Source of the DNA: Promethearchaeota archaeon
Lineage (GTDB): Archaea; Asgardarchaeota; Lokiarchaeia; Sigyniarchaeales; SOKP01
DNA length: 64,000 nt
Reading direction: 5' to 3'
Assembly (NCBI GenBank): GCA_016839555.1
Contig: JAEOUA010000006.1
Coordinates: forward strand, 512,001 to 576,000
Shown: positions 43,255 to 49,122 of the stretch, piece after piece
Position numbering within the stretch: position 1 is the first letter of the stretch
Layout: each line of letters opens with the position of its first letter
Translations under genes and position numbers: made by a program
The notes under the pieces: generated by a model
The model's database searches: none
What the model was told of the DNA's origin: nothing
The model's input: only the letters and a program-made list of their open reading frames with translations

Positions 43255-44352
43255 TTATATAAAAAGAAATGATAAAAAAAATAAAATTGTTGATAAAATA
43301 AAAGGATAAGTTAAATTATCATCAATTTCTAAATCAAAATAGTCTAAAATACCAATAATAAGAGCCCCGCTTAGAGGGAGAATGATAAATGCTACCATAT
43401 TAAAAAAATAATATGCTTTTAAAATTAATAAAATCAATACACCAGAAAAAAATGAAATGAATATTCCAGCAAAAAGTCCTATATATGTTTTATTACTCTT
43501 TTTTTTACCTAAAGGTTGGATTTTTTTTTTCCCCAATGTTCTTCCAATTAAATTGGAAGCGATATCTCCAAAGATTGACATAACCATTGAAGTGGATATA
43601 ACTATTGGTCCAAGAGGGTGATATAATCCATATAGGATAATAATTGAAAAGCATCCAATTGCCATTGAAATTTGGGGGCCTAATCTCATATATAATTCTT
43701 TCTTTCTTAATATTTGATTAACAGGTTTTAATGGATATAATTTAGGTTTTAAGATTCTAATGAGATCTGCAGTTAATAATCCAAATAAAGAAATTGCAAC
43801 GAGAAAGATAACAAGGTATTGATTAAAAATCATATTCTGATGTTCATTTAAAAAAAGAGAATAAAACAAGTCTGAAAAACCCGAAGGTAAAAATTGTATC
43901 AAATCTATAATAAGATCTTTAATCCAAGATCCGAGTGTAAAATAAAAAAGAATAATGCCTATAACAACCAAGTGAGAGATTTTTCTATAAATTTCATATT
44001 TTAGAGGTAATACATTAGATGCAGTTTGGAAAGCAGGTTCCATCTGGTCATTAGTCTTACTCAACAATTTCTTTTCTCGCAAAACTAAAAGAGAGAAAAT
44101 GATAAGAAAAAAAGGGAAGAAAAAAATCATAGAAACATCAAAAGGAAACACAATAAATTGAGCTCTCGATAAATTAAAAATATTTACTAGTATTAAATTA
44201 ACGGTAATTGAAATAAAGAGTATTAAGAAATTCACAAAATTATTTATAAAACTTCCTTTCATTCCCTTCTTTTTTGCCAAGATGGTAACATATAATATTA
44301 AGAAGCAATAGAAATAAAATACGCAAATAATGATAATTAGAGGGAAATTCAA
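43255..44352 (-). CDS. CTP-dependent polyprenol/diacylglycerol kinase family (dolichol kinase-like)
   Basis: Multi-TM; EIYRKISH, GDIASNLIGR.LG, KTYIG, IDDNLTYP. Confidence 0.8.
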   Translation of the reverse strand: MNFPLIIIICVFYFYCFLILYVTILAKKKGMKGSFINNFVNFLILFISITVNLILVNIFNLSRAQFIVFPFDVSMIFFFPFFLIIFSLLVLREKKLLSKTNDQMEPAFQTASNVLPLKYEIYRKISHLVVIGIILFYFTLGSWIKDLIIDLIQFLPSGFSDLFYSLFLNEHQNMIFNQYLVIFLVAISLFGLLTADLIRILKPKLYPLKPVNQILRKKELYMRLGPQISMAIGCFSIIILYGLYHPLGPIVISTSMVMSIFGDIASNLIGRTLGKKKIQPLGKKKSNKTYIGLFAGIFISFFSGVLILLILKAYYFFNMVAFIILPLSGALIIGILDYFDLEIDDNLTYPFILSTILFFLSFLFI

Positions 44353-44443: not shown

Positions 44444-45847
44444 CTAAAATTGTGTTTCATCTATAACGGGCATGTCTGAGTCGTTAATTGATTCTTGTAT
44501 TTTTTCATCAGATAATTCATAGTTTTTCAAGTCTCCTGTCATATATTCCTTATAGGCTAATAGGTCAAAAAATCCGTGTCCACTGAAGTTAAATAAAATA
44601 ATTTTTTCTTCGTTATTTTCCTTCGCCTTTAGAGCTTGATCGATTGCCTCTTTAATTGCATGATCTGTTTCAGGAGCAGGTAAGATACCCTCAGCTCTCG
44701 CAAATAAAAGCCCTGCTTTAATAACATCTAACTGATGATGCATTGATGCTTCCATAATATTATTATTATAGAGATTAGAAATAATAGGTGCTATTCCATG
44801 ATATCTTAACCCTCCGGCATGAATAGGACTCGGAATAAAATTATGGCCCAGTGTATGCATTTTTATTATGGGGGCTTTTTTGGCAGTATCTCCATAATCC
44901 CAAGTATATTTTCCTTTACATACGCTTGGACATGCTGTTGGTTCAACTCCTATTATTTGTATATCAGGAGAAACTTCTCTTATTTTATCCCGAGCAAAAG
45001 GAAGCATTAATCCAGAAAAATTCGAACCTCCACCCATGCATCCAATTACGATATCTGGTGCCTCTATACCTGCTTTTTTAAGCTGAACTTGAGCTTCTTG
45101 GCCTACGATGGTTTGATGAAGACAAACAAAGTTAACAACACTTCCTAATGAATATCTAATTTTATCACTTCTTAAGCTATGCTCCACTGCTTCCGATATT
45201 GCGAGACCTAAACTTCCTGGATGATTCGGGTCTTTTTCATAATATACCTTTCCCGATTCCGTGAATTTTGAGGGGGATGCGTGCACATCAGCCTTAAAAG
45301 ATCTCATAAGAATTTTTCTTCCTGGTTTTTGCTGAAAGCTTATCCTAACCATATAAACTGTACATTTTATGTCAAAGAGAGAACAGCCATATGAGAGACC
45401 AGATCCCCATTGGCCAGCTCCAGTTTCAGTTACCAATTCTTCAATTCCATCCATTTTAGCAAAATATGCTTGGGCAATTGCAGTATTAGGTTTATGTGAG
45501 CCTGTTGGAGAAACAGATTCATTCTTATAAAAGATTTTAATCTTATCTCCCTGCAATCCTAATTCTTTTTCCAAGTTTAATGCTCGATGGAGAGGAGTAG
45601 GTCTATAAATTTTTGCATATATTTCCCTTAACTGTTTTGGAATAGGAATAGTTGGTTCTTGTGAAACTTCCTGAATAACACATTCTTTGGGAAAAATAGC
45701 TGCCGCCATTTCAAATGGTGCTGGTTTTCCCGTCATAGGATTAATTAAGGGCGTCATTGGAGTGGGTAAATCTGGTAAAATATTTACCCATTCTTTCGGC
45801 ACTTCATTAGGATCTAATAAGATCCTTGCTTTAGAAAGATCCGTCAT
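44444..45847 (-). CDS. trpB2: Tryptophan synthase beta chain, TrpB2 type
   Basis: RPTPLHRA, GSHKPNTA, TETGAGQWG, GGGSNF, HAGGLRYHG, FNFSGHG. Confidence 0.95.
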   Translation of the reverse strand: MTDLSKARILLDPNEVPKEWVNILPDLPTPMTPLINPMTGKPAPFEMAAAIFPKECVIQEVSQEPTIPIPKQLREIYAKIYRPTPLHRALNLEKELGLQGDKIKIFYKNESVSPTGSHKPNTAIAQAYFAKMDGIEELVTETGAGQWGSGLSYGCSLFDIKCTVYMVRISFQQKPGRKILMRSFKADVHASPSKFTESGKVYYEKDPNHPGSLGLAISEAVEHSLRSDKIRYSLGSVVNFVCLHQTIVGQEAQVQLKKAGIEAPDIVIGCMGGGSNFSGLMLPFARDKIREVSPDIQIIGVEPTACPSVCKGKYTWDYGDTAKKAPIIKMHTLGHNFIPSPIHAGGLRYHGIAPIISNLYNNNIMEASMHHQLDVIKAGLLFARAEGILPAPETDHAIKEAIDQALKAKENNEEKIILFNFSGHGFFDLLAYKEYMTGDLKNYELSDEKIQESINDSDMPVIDETQF

Positions 45848-45931
45848 ATTATTTAACTCTTTTTTTTTATATATGTATCATTATATAATTGGAATTCAAT
45901 TCTATTAATGCATTTAAAAAGTTATTTGGAT

Positions 45932-45940
45932 AAAAAAAAA
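45932..45940 (-). terminator. T9 tract between the leader ORF and trpB2 (candidate attenuator terminator)
   Basis: Nine T residues on the minus strand, 41 nt after the leader stop; oligo-U tracts are typical archaeal terminators. Confidence 0.5.
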
Positions 45941-45980
45941 GTGTTTAACCCAAAAATATTAATAAGAATAGTCCAATGCA

Positions 45981-46043
45981 TTAGCGATTTTGCCAACGCC
46001 ACGGCCACTGAGCATTCCAAAAAGATATTTTATTAATTGCCAT
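45981..46043 (-). CDS. Trp-rich leader peptide MAINKISFWNAQWPWRWQNR (TrpL-like uORF)
   Basis: Hand translation gives ATG...TAA, 20 aa, 4 TGG codons; same strand as trpB2 and ends 133 nt before its ATG. Confidence 0.8.
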   Translation of the reverse strand: MAINKISFWNAQWPWRWQNR

Positions 46044-46240
46044 AATCTTATTTTTAAGGACTATTTAGTACCATTATTTTTCAAAATATAAAAAGTTAAT
46101 TATTTCTTAGAAAATTGTAAAAGGAGAGATTCAATATAAATCAAAATGAACCTTGGGATTCATTATGGATAAAACACTAAAAAATCTTATAACTAACTTG
46201 AATTATAAAGACTCTTAAGAATTTGGCCAAAAAAAAAAGA

Positions 46241-46651
46241 TTACTCAAAAATTTTCATGATTTTTTTAGCAGCTACTCTCATAACTTTTACGGTTTTCAT
46301 CAAGGTCTCAATTTCAGTTCCAGCACAAACAATAACTAATCTCTCTGCATTAGTTATTACAATATAACCATCACGCCCCCTTACTATTACCTCATTAAGA
46401 TGTTCTTGAAAAAGTTGTTCAATTGTAGATCTTCCAGTCATGAGAAGAGCTGAGGCTAGTCCACAGAATTGATCTCCATCAACATGATATTGGGGAAGAG
46501 CAGAAAAGGCGATTTGATATCCCTCTCTAGAAACAAGAGCTAATGCCTCAATATCTGCATTTGAAGTTATAAAAGTTATTTGAGGGCTTATTTTTTCAAT
46601 ATCCTCATCAGTTAAATTTAGATCAGTCCCAAATTCCATGATTTGGACCAC
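46241..46651 (-). CDS. Roadblock/LC7 domain protein
   Basis: IEALALVSREGYQIAFSALP, LASALL, LNEVIVRGRDGYIVI fold pattern. Confidence 0.88.
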   Translation of the reverse strand: MVQIMEFGTDLNLTDEDIEKISPQITFITSNADIEALALVSREGYQIAFSALPQYHVDGDQFCGLASALLMTGRSTIEQLFQEHLNEVIVRGRDGYIVITNAERLVIVCAGTEIETLMKTVKVMRVAAKKIMKIFE

Positions 46652-46803
46652 CCTCCATTTTATAAATTATATTTATTAATTTCATTTTAATAATATTTTC
46701 TAATTATAATCTTATAAAAAATAATCTTATAAAAAAGTTAAATATTTTATTTTCTATATTGTTATTAATTATTTAATGCCCAAAAAAGAAATTATATAAA
46801 AAA

Positions 46804-49122
46804 ATGATTACTACAAGAGAGTCTATTAATTATCAATATTCTTTAGTATTCGGTTATCAGAGCCCGAATGATAAAAATATCTCTGTCGGTGACATCATTA
46901 GCCCGGGAGTATTAACAGGGAATCTAGTAAAAGAACTTTCAGTAGATGTTGTTAATTTTTTCACTCAATATAATGCGATGTTAAGAGATTACAGTGGTTC
47001 AGAATTATTTTTTGTTGAATTTGAACTAAAAGATATCAGTTTTAGGAAAAATTTAACAATGATTTACCCAAAATCTATGATATTAGTTCCGGGAAATTAT
47101 AAGGAATGTGAAAGCTTAATGCTCGCATTGAAACCAGAAAGAGGTTATTTGAATATTCATAAATCTAATAAAGCTATCAATAAAATAAGTCGCTTATTTT
47201 TTGAAGTAGAAGATTTTGCTAATCGTCCAGAATTAAATCAAAAAGAAAAAGAAAAATTGTTTAACAAATTTGCTTCAAGATTCAGTAAAAAATTATATGG
47301 GGGACTTATTGAAAGTAAGTGGAATAAAAAATTAATTGGAATCTCAGAATCACTTCCTACAGAAAAAGAATTTTTAAAACAATATGGAAAATTAAAATCA
47401 AAAATTGATGTTTCTTGGTATAAAAAACCTCTTGAAATATCTTTATCAGATATAAAATATGGAAAACTTAAAGATCCATATGAAGGAAAAACTGGTTTTG
47501 AACACATTAAGTTTAATATAGCAACACCAACAGCAGGATTTATTACTGCTAAAACTCTAAAATTAGGTTCTAATCTCTTAAATTTAGCTAATATCGGTAC
47601 AATTGATAAATTCCAAGAACAATTGGTTAAATTTATTATTAAAAAAATTAAAAAGGAGGATCTCTCTACTATAAATGAAGAGAAATCAGAGAAGTGGTTA
47701 ATTTCAAGAATAGAAAACTATTTGAATCATTTTGAAGAGAAAATGAAGGAATATTTCGACTATTTTGAGGAATATTTAATTAGTGGAATTAAAGGTAATA
47801 TAGACTATGTTTTAGAAGAATTTAAAAAATTTATTTTAAAGAAACAATCTTCATCTAAAAACGATTTTTCTGAACTCCATAAAATAACAGTTCAATTTAT
47901 AAAACAAATAATTTTAAAAAAGGAAGATGTAATTGCCAATGATTTAAGATCCGCATACAATTATTTTTCTGAACTATTTACACAAAATATACAAATTATC
48001 ATTAAAACTCTTCCTAAATTTTTAATCATAAGACATTTAAAAAATAAAACGAAATTATTAATTGAAAATTTAAGAATTGCATTTGAGAAAGAGGAGGATC
48101 CAGCAAAAAGAGTGGGCAATAAATTTATTGATACATTTTATGAATTTATACTAAAAAAGATGAAGGATTTTCCTCCAATATACTCAAATAATTTAAATAT
48201 CAATGAAGAACAACTTTCTCTTGAATTTTTTATTTTAGTGAAAGAAAAATTAGATAAATTTTTTGAAAAAATACAGATTGAAGGAAGCGATATCCTATCA
48301 TTTGCAGAATTTGAAATAAAGAATGATGAAAAAATTATAAAAAATTATAGTAGTAAATTTAAAAAATTTACAGAAGAGATTCATTTTCTATTAAGTTATA
48401 TCTTAAGATATTCCACAATTAATAGATTTATAAAAGAAAAAAATGATAAAGATATTTCTGATCCAATTTCGTTTTCCTCAAAATTTCACAGATTTTTGGA
48501 GAAGAGATTAGCCGGTATCAATCTCATTTGCAAATCTTATATCTTAGAGTGGATAAATGAATATTCAGAACTCTTTTCTAAGAGGACGGAAGATAAAAAA
48601 TGGACCTTAAATGATATTTATAATGATTTTATTACTTATCTTCAAGAAAAAGAATCATTAGCTCATGATCCCGAAAAATTTTTTACAATTTTAGATACTA
48701 ATTTAGCTAAAGAAGCAGAAGAGAGCGAAAAAATTTCATTATTAAAGTTTTTAGATAAATATCTTTATTATAAAGATGTAGCAGGGCAATTCCCTGAATA
48801 TTTAAGAAAGAAATTTAATAAAGAGATTCAAAACTTGATTCATTCCTCGGAAAAATCAAAGCCTCTAGCTTATCTTACAAAAAATGGAGAAAAAAATTTT
48901 TTTAATTATATAAGAGAAACTGAACTTAAATATTATTCAAAATTAATACCGATTCCTAAAACACTAATCCTAAAGCATTTATTAACCCATGAAGAAAAAG
49001 AACAATTTAAAGGGGATTTATTTCAAGTATTTGAATTTAATTTAATGGGAGAGGATAAATTCATTATAAATTTAAAAGATAATTTTAAAGAAATTTTTAG
49101 AGAGTGGATTAAAGCATTATGA
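46804..49122 (+). CDS. Large hypothetical protein
   Basis: 772-aa ORF, mostly helical; no recognised motif. Confidence 0.75.
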   Translation: MITTRESINYQYSLVFGYQSPNDKNISVGDIISPGVLTGNLVKELSVDVVNFFTQYNAMLRDYSGSELFFVEFELKDISFRKNLTMIYPKSMILVPGNYKECESLMLALKPERGYLNIHKSNKAINKISRLFFEVEDFANRPELNQKEKEKLFNKFASRFSKKLYGGLIESKWNKKLIGISESLPTEKEFLKQYGKLKSKIDVSWYKKPLEISLSDIKYGKLKDPYEGKTGFEHIKFNIATPTAGFITAKTLKLGSNLLNLANIGTIDKFQEQLVKFIIKKIKKEDLSTINEEKSEKWLISRIENYLNHFEEKMKEYFDYFEEYLISGIKGNIDYVLEEFKKFILKKQSSSKNDFSELHKITVQFIKQIILKKEDVIANDLRSAYNYFSELFTQNIQIIIKTLPKFLIIRHLKNKTKLLIENLRIAFEKEEDPAKRVGNKFIDTFYEFILKKMKDFPPIYSNNLNINEEQLSLEFFILVKEKLDKFFEKIQIEGSDILSFAEFEIKNDEKIIKNYSSKFKKFTEEIHFLLSYILRYSTINRFIKEKNDKDISDPISFSSKFHRFLEKRLAGINLICKSYILEWINEYSELFSKRTEDKKWTLNDIYNDFITYLQEKESLAHDPEKFFTILDTNLAKEAEESEKISLLKFLDKYLYYKDVAGQFPEYLRKKFNKEIQNLIHSSEKSKPLAYLTKNGEKNFFNYIRETELKYYSKLIPIPKTLILKHLLTHEEKEQFKGDLFQVFEFNLMGEDKFIINLKDNFKEIFREWIKAL

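Follow-up and report, generated by a model that had tools for sequence, protein, structure and literature searches.

A candidate ribosome-sensed tryptophan attenuator upstream of trpB2 and other tryptophan genes in Promethearchaeia

Can an archaeon regulate its tryptophan genes through the passage of a ribosome over a leader peptide rich in tryptophan codons? The question is raised by a spacer of 393 nucleotides (nt), AT-rich, in a 64,000-nt stretch of the genome of a Promethearchaeota archaeon (assembly GCA_016839555.1, contig JAEOUA010000006.1, positions 512,001 to 576,000), hereafter the window, in whose coordinates the features of this locus are given. The spacer separates a Roadblock/LC7 gene from a PALP-domain gene, and it contains an open reading frame (ORF) of 20 codons, four of which specify tryptophan. 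A preliminary description of this DNA had proposed that the ORF and a U-tract behind it form a ribosome-dependent tryptophan attenuator of the downstream gene. We consider that the element is probably a ribosome-sensed tryptophan attenuator, an interpretation for which the comparative evidence argues, as related leaders stand before trpB2, trpDCFBA(EG) and trpEG, with T-runs after the ORF.

The leader ORF, MAINKISFWNAQWPWRWQNR with its stop codon, occupies positions 45981 to 46043 of the minus strand, and homologous ORFs are present in relatives. It begins with ATG at 46043-46041 and stops with TAA at 45983-45981, and its TGG codons lie at 46019-46017, 46007-46005, 46001-45999 and 45995-45993; the four tryptophans among 20 codons compare with a background of 1.1% Trp in the six-frame translation. 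The GC content is 0.34 over the ORF and 0.16-0.25 in its flanks. The ORF, its four Trp codons, the GC-rich patch, a T9 tract (45940-45932) and a TATA-like box upstream all agreed base for base with the preliminary description, and the Roadblock/LC7 gene (46651-46241, minus strand) ends in a T10 run, as had also been stated. The downstream gene (44444-45847, minus strand, 467 aa) is indeed trpB2, encoding a stand-alone tryptophan synthase beta-like protein, and is presumably the regulated gene. Its product carries a PALP domain (Pfam, E = 1.6e-34), has orthologues in 38 of 41 relatives, and shares 70-90% identity with the stand-alone TrpB2 proteins of relatives, as against 27% with the TrpB1 encoded in operons. 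The window leader thus has the arrangement by which attenuators of this class are recognised, a short ORF of cognate codons 5' of a biosynthetic gene.

This arrangement is more than chance. In the six-frame translation (about 7.5 million codons) of the host genome (3.74 Mb, 29.6% GC, 92% complete) there are 41 occurrences of WxWxW, and only 2 of the 41 belong to a mini-ORF that begins with ATG and ends directly behind the Trp run, so that a chance origin of the leader is not tenable. One of the two is the window leader and the other stands before a decayed trpE. This second leader (MTYFFNETWFWAWRWHE, contig C12:154448-154374, minus strand) is intact, and behind it come 40 codons from the start of trpE, with stop codons after these; the decayed trp locus (C12:154082-154448 and 156623-156850) retains, 2 kb from the leader, a C-terminal fragment of TrpA alone. 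We regard the second leader as what remains of a trpEG unit that has been lost. TrpE, TrpG, TrpD, IGPS, PRAI and TrpB1 were not found in the 92%-complete host assembly, and because the rest of the pathway was not found, trpB2 is the only tryptophan-forming gene identified in this genome. The host has apparently lost its trp operon and kept a regulated trpB2, presumably for indole salvage.

We investigated the distribution of the leader before trpB2 in relatives, using the orthologues from 38 of the 41 relatives together with 49 further loci from a species collection, which reduced to 54 non-redundant loci (family-level identity). The preliminary description had made its case depend on a Trp-rich ORF recurring upstream of orthologous trpB2 genes, and we identified such a mini-ORF, taken as one with three or more Trp codons, at the same place at 45 of the 54 non-redundant loci of this Promethearchaeia family. 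The 45 leaders are 12-24 codons long (median 17), and 112-183 nt separate their stop codons from the trpB2 ATG. They contain four tryptophans at 22 loci, five at 15, three at six, and two and six at one locus each, mostly in the pattern W-x-W-x-W, with the consensus M-(A/T)-(T/L)-(V/A)-K-N-x-x-W-(C/R)-W-Q-W-P-W-R-W-(R/Q)-stop. The stop lies within 0-3 residues of the last Trp in 41 of the 45, and all three stop codons are in use (TAA 29, TAG 12, TGA 4). An alignment anchored on the ATG shows no variation in this codon, and the gaps inside the ORF have a width of 6 or 12 columns.

The leader was absent from nine of the 54 trpB2 loci, including those of three of the genera sampled first; one of the nine loci (L011) retains the 3' arm of a hairpin and the sequence CATTGG, the remains of a decayed leader. 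In other families of the order we found leaders with two tryptophans, 250-350 nt 5' of trpB2 (ending ..TWPWH, ..PWAWRP or ..AWAWRVH), and no Trp-rich upstream ORF was found before the TrpB2 homologues of the bacterial Clostridia. A Bathyarchaeia contig (L085, DATKZI010000061.1) has a short ORF ending ..GAKCWQWFFFTS about 209-305 nt 5' of a trpB2 whose product is 54% identical, and this ORF may, from its sequence, be a two-Trp leader outside the Asgard archaea. That candidate aside, the element is so far restricted to Promethearchaeia (Asgard).

Amino-acid conservation accompanied by synonymous variation had been expected of a translated leader. The ORF is conserved, but synonymous variation within the Trp run is nearly nil, the codons between the tryptophans being close to fixed (CAG 42 versus CAA 2, CGT 37 versus CGC 1, in a 30%-GC genome). 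As synonymous change is so rare, the Trp run appears to be constrained as RNA as well as by its coding.

The same kind of leader is found before other tryptophan units. Where relatives have retained the pathway, trpD of a trpD-C-F-B-A-E-G operon has a Trp-rich mini-ORF 140-420 nt 5' of it; all seven genes of the operon were confirmed by Pfam at one locus (L037), and separate trpE-G units are also preceded by a leader (L033 and L034). We identified two leader types that differ in sequence, ..W-Q-W-P-W-R-W.. and ..T-W-F-W-A-W-R-W-H-A. Both have an in-frame TGG at every second position and a stop right after the run, and both keep an in-frame ATG 8-12 codons 5' of the run; the trpD leader of one genome (G010) has TGT in place of TGG at two positions. 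From an alignment of leaders (A1) we built a sequence model (R1) that covers the 3' part of the leader. It matched 113 of the 131 genomes of the family, with 1-5 matches per genome and a best E-value of 6e-21, and almost never matched other families, whose leader sequence differs. Twenty additional matches were fetched, of which 17 have TrpB2, TrpD-TrpC or TrpE-TrpG next; the other three have none of these in the short stretch available. Conservation before orthologues and before further units of the same pathway, the other hallmark of the attenuator class, is therefore seen at trpB2, trpD and trpE, and the link with tryptophan genes is exclusive. One R1 match, in a 6.0-Mb single-contig genome (G050), is probably spurious; no Trp gene was found downstream.

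Two further genes were noted beside the leaders of trp operons. Between the Trp leader and trpD we observed a conserved ORF of about 90 codons (L033:11854-12135, minus strand; ..FGPEKSKTA(K/R)FIA..) without a Pfam family, which also occurs at L036, L038 and L107, and possibly at L040. Immediately 5' of the leader and trp operon of L037 lies a gene for an AsnC/Lrp-type helix-turn-helix regulator (L037:6282-6773, plus strand), with homologues at 53% identity in the host genome (C5:289745 and C6:198377), a candidate protein regulator of trp genes.

The sequence upstream of the leader ORF suggests that it has a promoter of its own. The TATA-like TTTTTATA lies at 46094-46087, about 45-52 nt 5' of the leader ATG, and with the TTAAC before it forms a putative B recognition element (BRE)/TATA promoter (TTAAC-TTTTTATA, 46087-46099, minus strand). 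The motif is conserved across genera, and rTTAAC-TTTTTA(A/T)A is found 45-58 nt 5' of the leader ATG at nearly all loci. Upstream regions of tRNA genes, tried as a promoter reference, gave no information.

The RNA from 46068 to 45950 is predicted to fold, at -25 kcal/mol, into a three-way junction of helices P1, P2 and P3. In P1 the strand AAUAGUCC of the leader 5' untranslated region (UTR; 46058-46065) pairs with GGACUAUU (45974-45967); the conserved motif D (GCATTGG) runs into this 3' strand, the two together spanning 45967-45979. P2 (46000-46044) joins UAUGGC, with the start codon (46044-46039), to GCCGUG of the Trp-Pro-Trp codons (46005-46000), and P3 (45978-45999) is a hairpin between GCGUUGGC, with the last Trp codon, and GCUAAUGC, with the stop codon. 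The N-terminal codons of relatives likewise pair with the central Trp codons, the P2 sequences being conserved and not covarying. Nearly all relatives have the potential for P3 in one of two registers, with single compensatory variants (GUGUU/AACAC, GGUC/GACC, GCGCC/GGCGC, and CACGC/GCGUG versus CACGU/ACGUG).

P1 is present in most relatives in divergent sequences (UAGUCC:GGACUA, UGGUUUA:UAAACCA, UAUCC:GGAUA, and UCAAU:AUUGG plus AAAUUU:AAAUUU). Cognate pairs of 5' UTR and 3' flank have an average advantage of 3.4 kcal/mol over pairs made across genomes, and fall into the best tenth at 19 of 36 and 18 of 33 loci; in per-sequence duplex folding, the P1 duplex outscores 95% of shuffles in 17 of 39 cases. 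Thus P1 covaries, independently of any alignment. RNAalifold did not recover it on the ATG-anchored alignments because the offset of the P1 5' strand varies among genera. The preliminary description had not seen this junction, and had given weight to a 9-bp pairing between TAATGCATT, over the stop codon, and AATGCATTA (45914-45906). That complementarity is present, but it is specific to the genus, shrinks to about 5 bp (a TGCA core) in most relatives and shows no covariation (pairing D:EF); the conserved fold is instead the three-way junction.

Three leaders (L055, L057 and L058) carry a 1-nt deletion after TGGCGT that shifts the frame, so that the ORF extends across the hairpin to a stop 7-9 codons further on, which at L055 and L057 lies within motif D (GCATAG). 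All three retain the four Trp codons, the hairpin and motif D.

The near-fixation of the nucleotides between the UGGs, and a 6-nt spacing that recalls the period of the (G/U)AG repeats bound by TRAP, could alternatively mean that the UGG repeats are not translated, and serve as the site of a tryptophan-activated, TRAP-like RNA-binding protein or as part of a ligand- or tRNA-sensing RNA. Leaders whose frame has shifted and whose hairpin and motif D are nevertheless kept would suit such an element. The TRAP-regulated trp leader of Bacillus has about 11 (G/U)AG repeats, whereas the triplet here is UGG, repeated 4-6 times. We did not find the TRAP family (PF02081) in the 92%-complete host genome, and a cmscan search of positions 45500-46900 at E <= 10 returned no Trp_leader (RF00513), no T-box (RF00230) and no other RNA family, apart from two snoRNA-like matches inside the Roadblock gene that we attribute to chance. 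Moreover, both leader types keep an in-frame ATG and a stop 0-3 codons after the run, with all three stop codons in use, and the frame-shifted copies themselves retain four in-frame Trp codons before the shift. We consider this explanation very unlikely.

Downstream of the junction lies a U-rich candidate terminator (45932-45956, minus strand), consisting of T5 (45956-45952) and T9 (45940-45932). The segments TTTGGGT and ATCCAAA, correctly described earlier as flanking T9, could form a local hairpin enclosing it. Runs of at least five T on the sense strand occur between the leader and the next conserved block at 40 of the 45 loci, compared with runs of at least five A at 11; for runs of at least six the numbers are 26 and 4. 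They lie 25-55 nt 3' of the leader stop, where at the level of sequence they look like terminators.

The block that follows is a second conserved domain (45850-45915, minus strand), identified by alignment. In the window it comprises motif E, AAATGCATTAAT (45915-45904), palindrome F, ATTGAATTCCAAT (45900-45888), and a TATA-like TTATATAA (45888-45881), followed by A-rich sequence to the trpB2 start; motif E is conserved as aUGUGCAUUAAU and palindrome F as AUUGAaUUCCAAU, the latter also in the forms UUUG..CAAA and AUUA..UAAU. A long hairpin is predicted here by RNAalifold, and the base of the domain covaries. In most relatives a CACAU..AUGUG hairpin abuts a Shine-Dalgarno-like UGGUAA about 8 nt 5' of the trpB2 ATG. 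The domain is kept at two loci where the leader is missing or decayed (L007 and L011) and, in modified form, also lies 5' of trpD and trpE. In the E-F-G palindrome, compared for G·U versus A·C as a sign of action as RNA or as DNA, the counts were about 26 and 16 cells, and this second domain may be an RNA switch, or it may be an operator for a protein or a promoter at the DNA level.

An RNA switch next to the trpB2 start would allow the output of the leader to be something other than termination. The translated leader would still sense tRNA-Trp, and refolding through E-F-G would expose or mask the ribosome-binding site of trpB2, or alter the stability of the mRNA. The covarying base of E-F-G suits this proposal, as does the CACAU..AUGUG hairpin beside the UGGUAA box in most relatives, since motif E (AUGUG) can compete for CACAU; the UCCAAU half of palindrome F is, in addition, complementary to the Trp run and motif D (mean duplex -11.4 kcal/mol). 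However, these alternative pairings are conserved in sequence and show no covariation, the window copy has neither the CACAU..AUGUG hairpin nor the UGGUAA box, and the bias of T-runs to the sense strand between leader and E-F-G would be left without an explanation. An output of this kind has a small but real chance of being the correct one.

A DNA-level role of the second domain would suit a different division of the locus, in which the leader is a separate small gene whose product is either a small RNA or a Trp-rich micropeptide and which has a promoter and a U-run terminator to itself, and trpB2 is transcribed from the F/TATA-like promoter under a DNA-binding regulator. Leader and trpB2 would then be mere neighbours, or the RNA would act in trans, as passages of PMC7298713 and PMC7968998 describe for the RNA and the peptide of the Sinorhizobium trp attenuator. 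A strong conserved promoter before the leader, T-runs after it, palindrome F with TTATATAA 33 nt 5' of the trpB2 ATG, the retention of E-F-G where the leader has decayed, the intact leader beside a dead trpE in the host genome and the AsnC-type regulator gene beside the trp operon of L037 are all compatible with this division. Nevertheless, the leader is linked exclusively with three different tryptophan units, its spacing to the structural gene is tight and its Trp codons lie inside helices; these properties are expected of a sensor acting in cis and would be needless in a free-standing gene. In most relatives the F region also fails to match the leader promoter's TTTTTA(A/T)A box. We give a separate leader gene only a slim chance.

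As a ribosome-sensed attenuator, the element could work as follows. From the promoter about 50 nt 5' of the mini-ORF, a transcript would be made that carries the leader of 20 codons and, after a further 135 nt or so, trpB2, so that both would share one RNA. The leader RNA would form the junction from the 5' UTR and the stretch after the stop (P1), the start and N-terminal codons with the central Trp codons (P2) and the last Trp codon with the stop region (P3), with the U-runs next. If charged tRNA-Trp is ample, the first ribosome would clear the four UGG codons and leave at the stop, the junction would fold, and RNA polymerase would terminate in the U-runs, either intrinsically or with aCPSF1/FttA. 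If tRNA-Trp is scarce, the ribosome would stall on the UGG codons and, because these codons are strands of P2 and P3, would block the junction, so that transcription would continue into trpB2 or the trpB2 start would become usable. Oligo-T terminates archaeal RNA polymerase, and an upstream hairpin can enhance this, according to the account of Santangelo and Reeve (2006) given in PMC13675443. The host genome has Shine-Dalgarno-led translation, which likewise favours the attenuator. In its most specific form the proposal is that Promethearchaeia use ribosome-coupled transcription attenuation, in which a Trp-codon leader within a three-way junction decides an oligo-U/FttA stop before each tryptophan unit; we see an even chance that this form is right.

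Several observations weigh against the attenuator and its proposed mechanism. We found no clear Shine-Dalgarno sequence 5' of the window leader ATG; and as synonymous change is nearly nil, the conservation of the sequence is by itself no proof that the leader is translated. The z-score of the fold of RNA 46068-45950 is modest (-1.9), and a formal count of P3 pairs is no better than expected (85% of cells paired, versus 84% in shuffles). A search for a conserved antiterminator helix that competes with the junction found none, and the U-runs begin 4-20 nt after P1 and do not abut it. Palindrome F and the TATA-like box (45900-45881) stand between the U-runs and trpB2 and are kept where the leader has decayed; this region could be a separate promoter or operator of trpB2. 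Finally, the intact leader next to the destroyed trpE of the host genome fits recent gene loss, and fits an independent role of the leader as well.

Beyond tryptophan, the preliminary description had proposed to scan other amino-acid biosynthesis genes for cognate-codon leaders. A crude scan of the host genome for amino-acid runs in intergenic mini-ORFs returned no comparable leaders for other amino acids, and no Thr-rich leader was found upstream of its thrS. Matches of the scan before PAC2, MFS-transporter and saccharopine-dehydrogenase-like genes were judged to be chance. Around the locus itself, two ORFs have no Pfam match: one of 365 aa 3' of trpB2 (43255-44352, minus strand), and a divergent one of 772 aa beyond the Roadblock gene (46804-49122, plus strand).

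What is known of archaeal gene control concerns almost exclusively promoter recruitment, and according to a paper of 2021 neither attenuation nor antitermination is known from this domain (PMC8448881). The word attenuation is absent from a 2026 review of termination (PMC13675443), and in our literature search we found neither Trp leader peptides nor an attenuator of any kind described for archaea. If correct, this would be the first case of an attenuation mechanism in the domain Archaea. It would also be direct genetic evidence for the use of coupled transcription and translation to control genes in the prokaryotes most closely related to eukaryotes. A leader-peptide sensor in over 100 Asgard genomes, exploiting coupled transcription and translation, would add a layer of regulation. 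The locus would also offer a compact natural system in which to test archaeal termination at U-tracts with aCPSF1/FttA, the stalling of ribosomes at Trp codons, and engineered switches that respond to amino acids.

Among the known systems that come close are the archaeal trp regulators. The preliminary description had named repressors such as TrpY as the characterised form of archaeal trp control, in agreement with PMC6737238, which lists as the known ones TrpY (Methanothermobacter) and Tar (Thermococcus), DNA-binding proteins that act at promoters and the only such regulators described. They control the same pathway and are likewise archaeal, while the element described here is an RNA leader with a putatively translated ORF; a protein regulator may additionally act at palindrome F. 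The same type of evidence, cognate-codon mini-ORFs before several operons of one pathway, has identified leader attenuators by comparative genomics in Actinobacteria (PMC1262725) and short poly-Cys ORFs in mycobacteria (bioRxiv 10.1101/834739), which are bacterial and use intrinsic terminators or Rho, whereas the present element is archaeal. TnaC, from the tryptophanase operon of Escherichia coli, resembles it in being a short Trp-related leader peptide at which ribosome occupancy controls factor-dependent termination downstream, as is presumed here. TnaC, however, senses free tryptophan through the nascent chain and turns on a catabolic operon at high Trp, and no sequence likeness was found; the multiple UGG codons before anabolic or salvage genes fit instead the sensing of tRNA-Trp charging.

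In its presumed logic the element is like enterobacterial trpL (RF00513). The host here is archaeal, and neither the sequence nor the structure matches that family; the Trp codons number 3-6 and alternate with others, whereas trpL has two adjacent ones. The fold is a three-way junction closed by a helix between the 5' UTR and the stretch after the stop, with no antiterminator identified, in place of the 1:2/2:3/3:4 hairpin relay of trpL, and termination would be archaeal, through oligo-U and aCPSF1/FttA, and not through a hairpin abutting the U-tract. What would be new is the RNA architecture of this leader-peptide attenuation and its presence in a domain from which we found no report of such attenuation, and what is known already is the logic of the bacterial trpL class: in both, genes for tryptophan synthesis have upstream of them a short ORF whose Trp codons are near its end, helices include the regulatory codons, a U-rich tract follows, and a stalled ribosome would, presumably, lead to readthrough.

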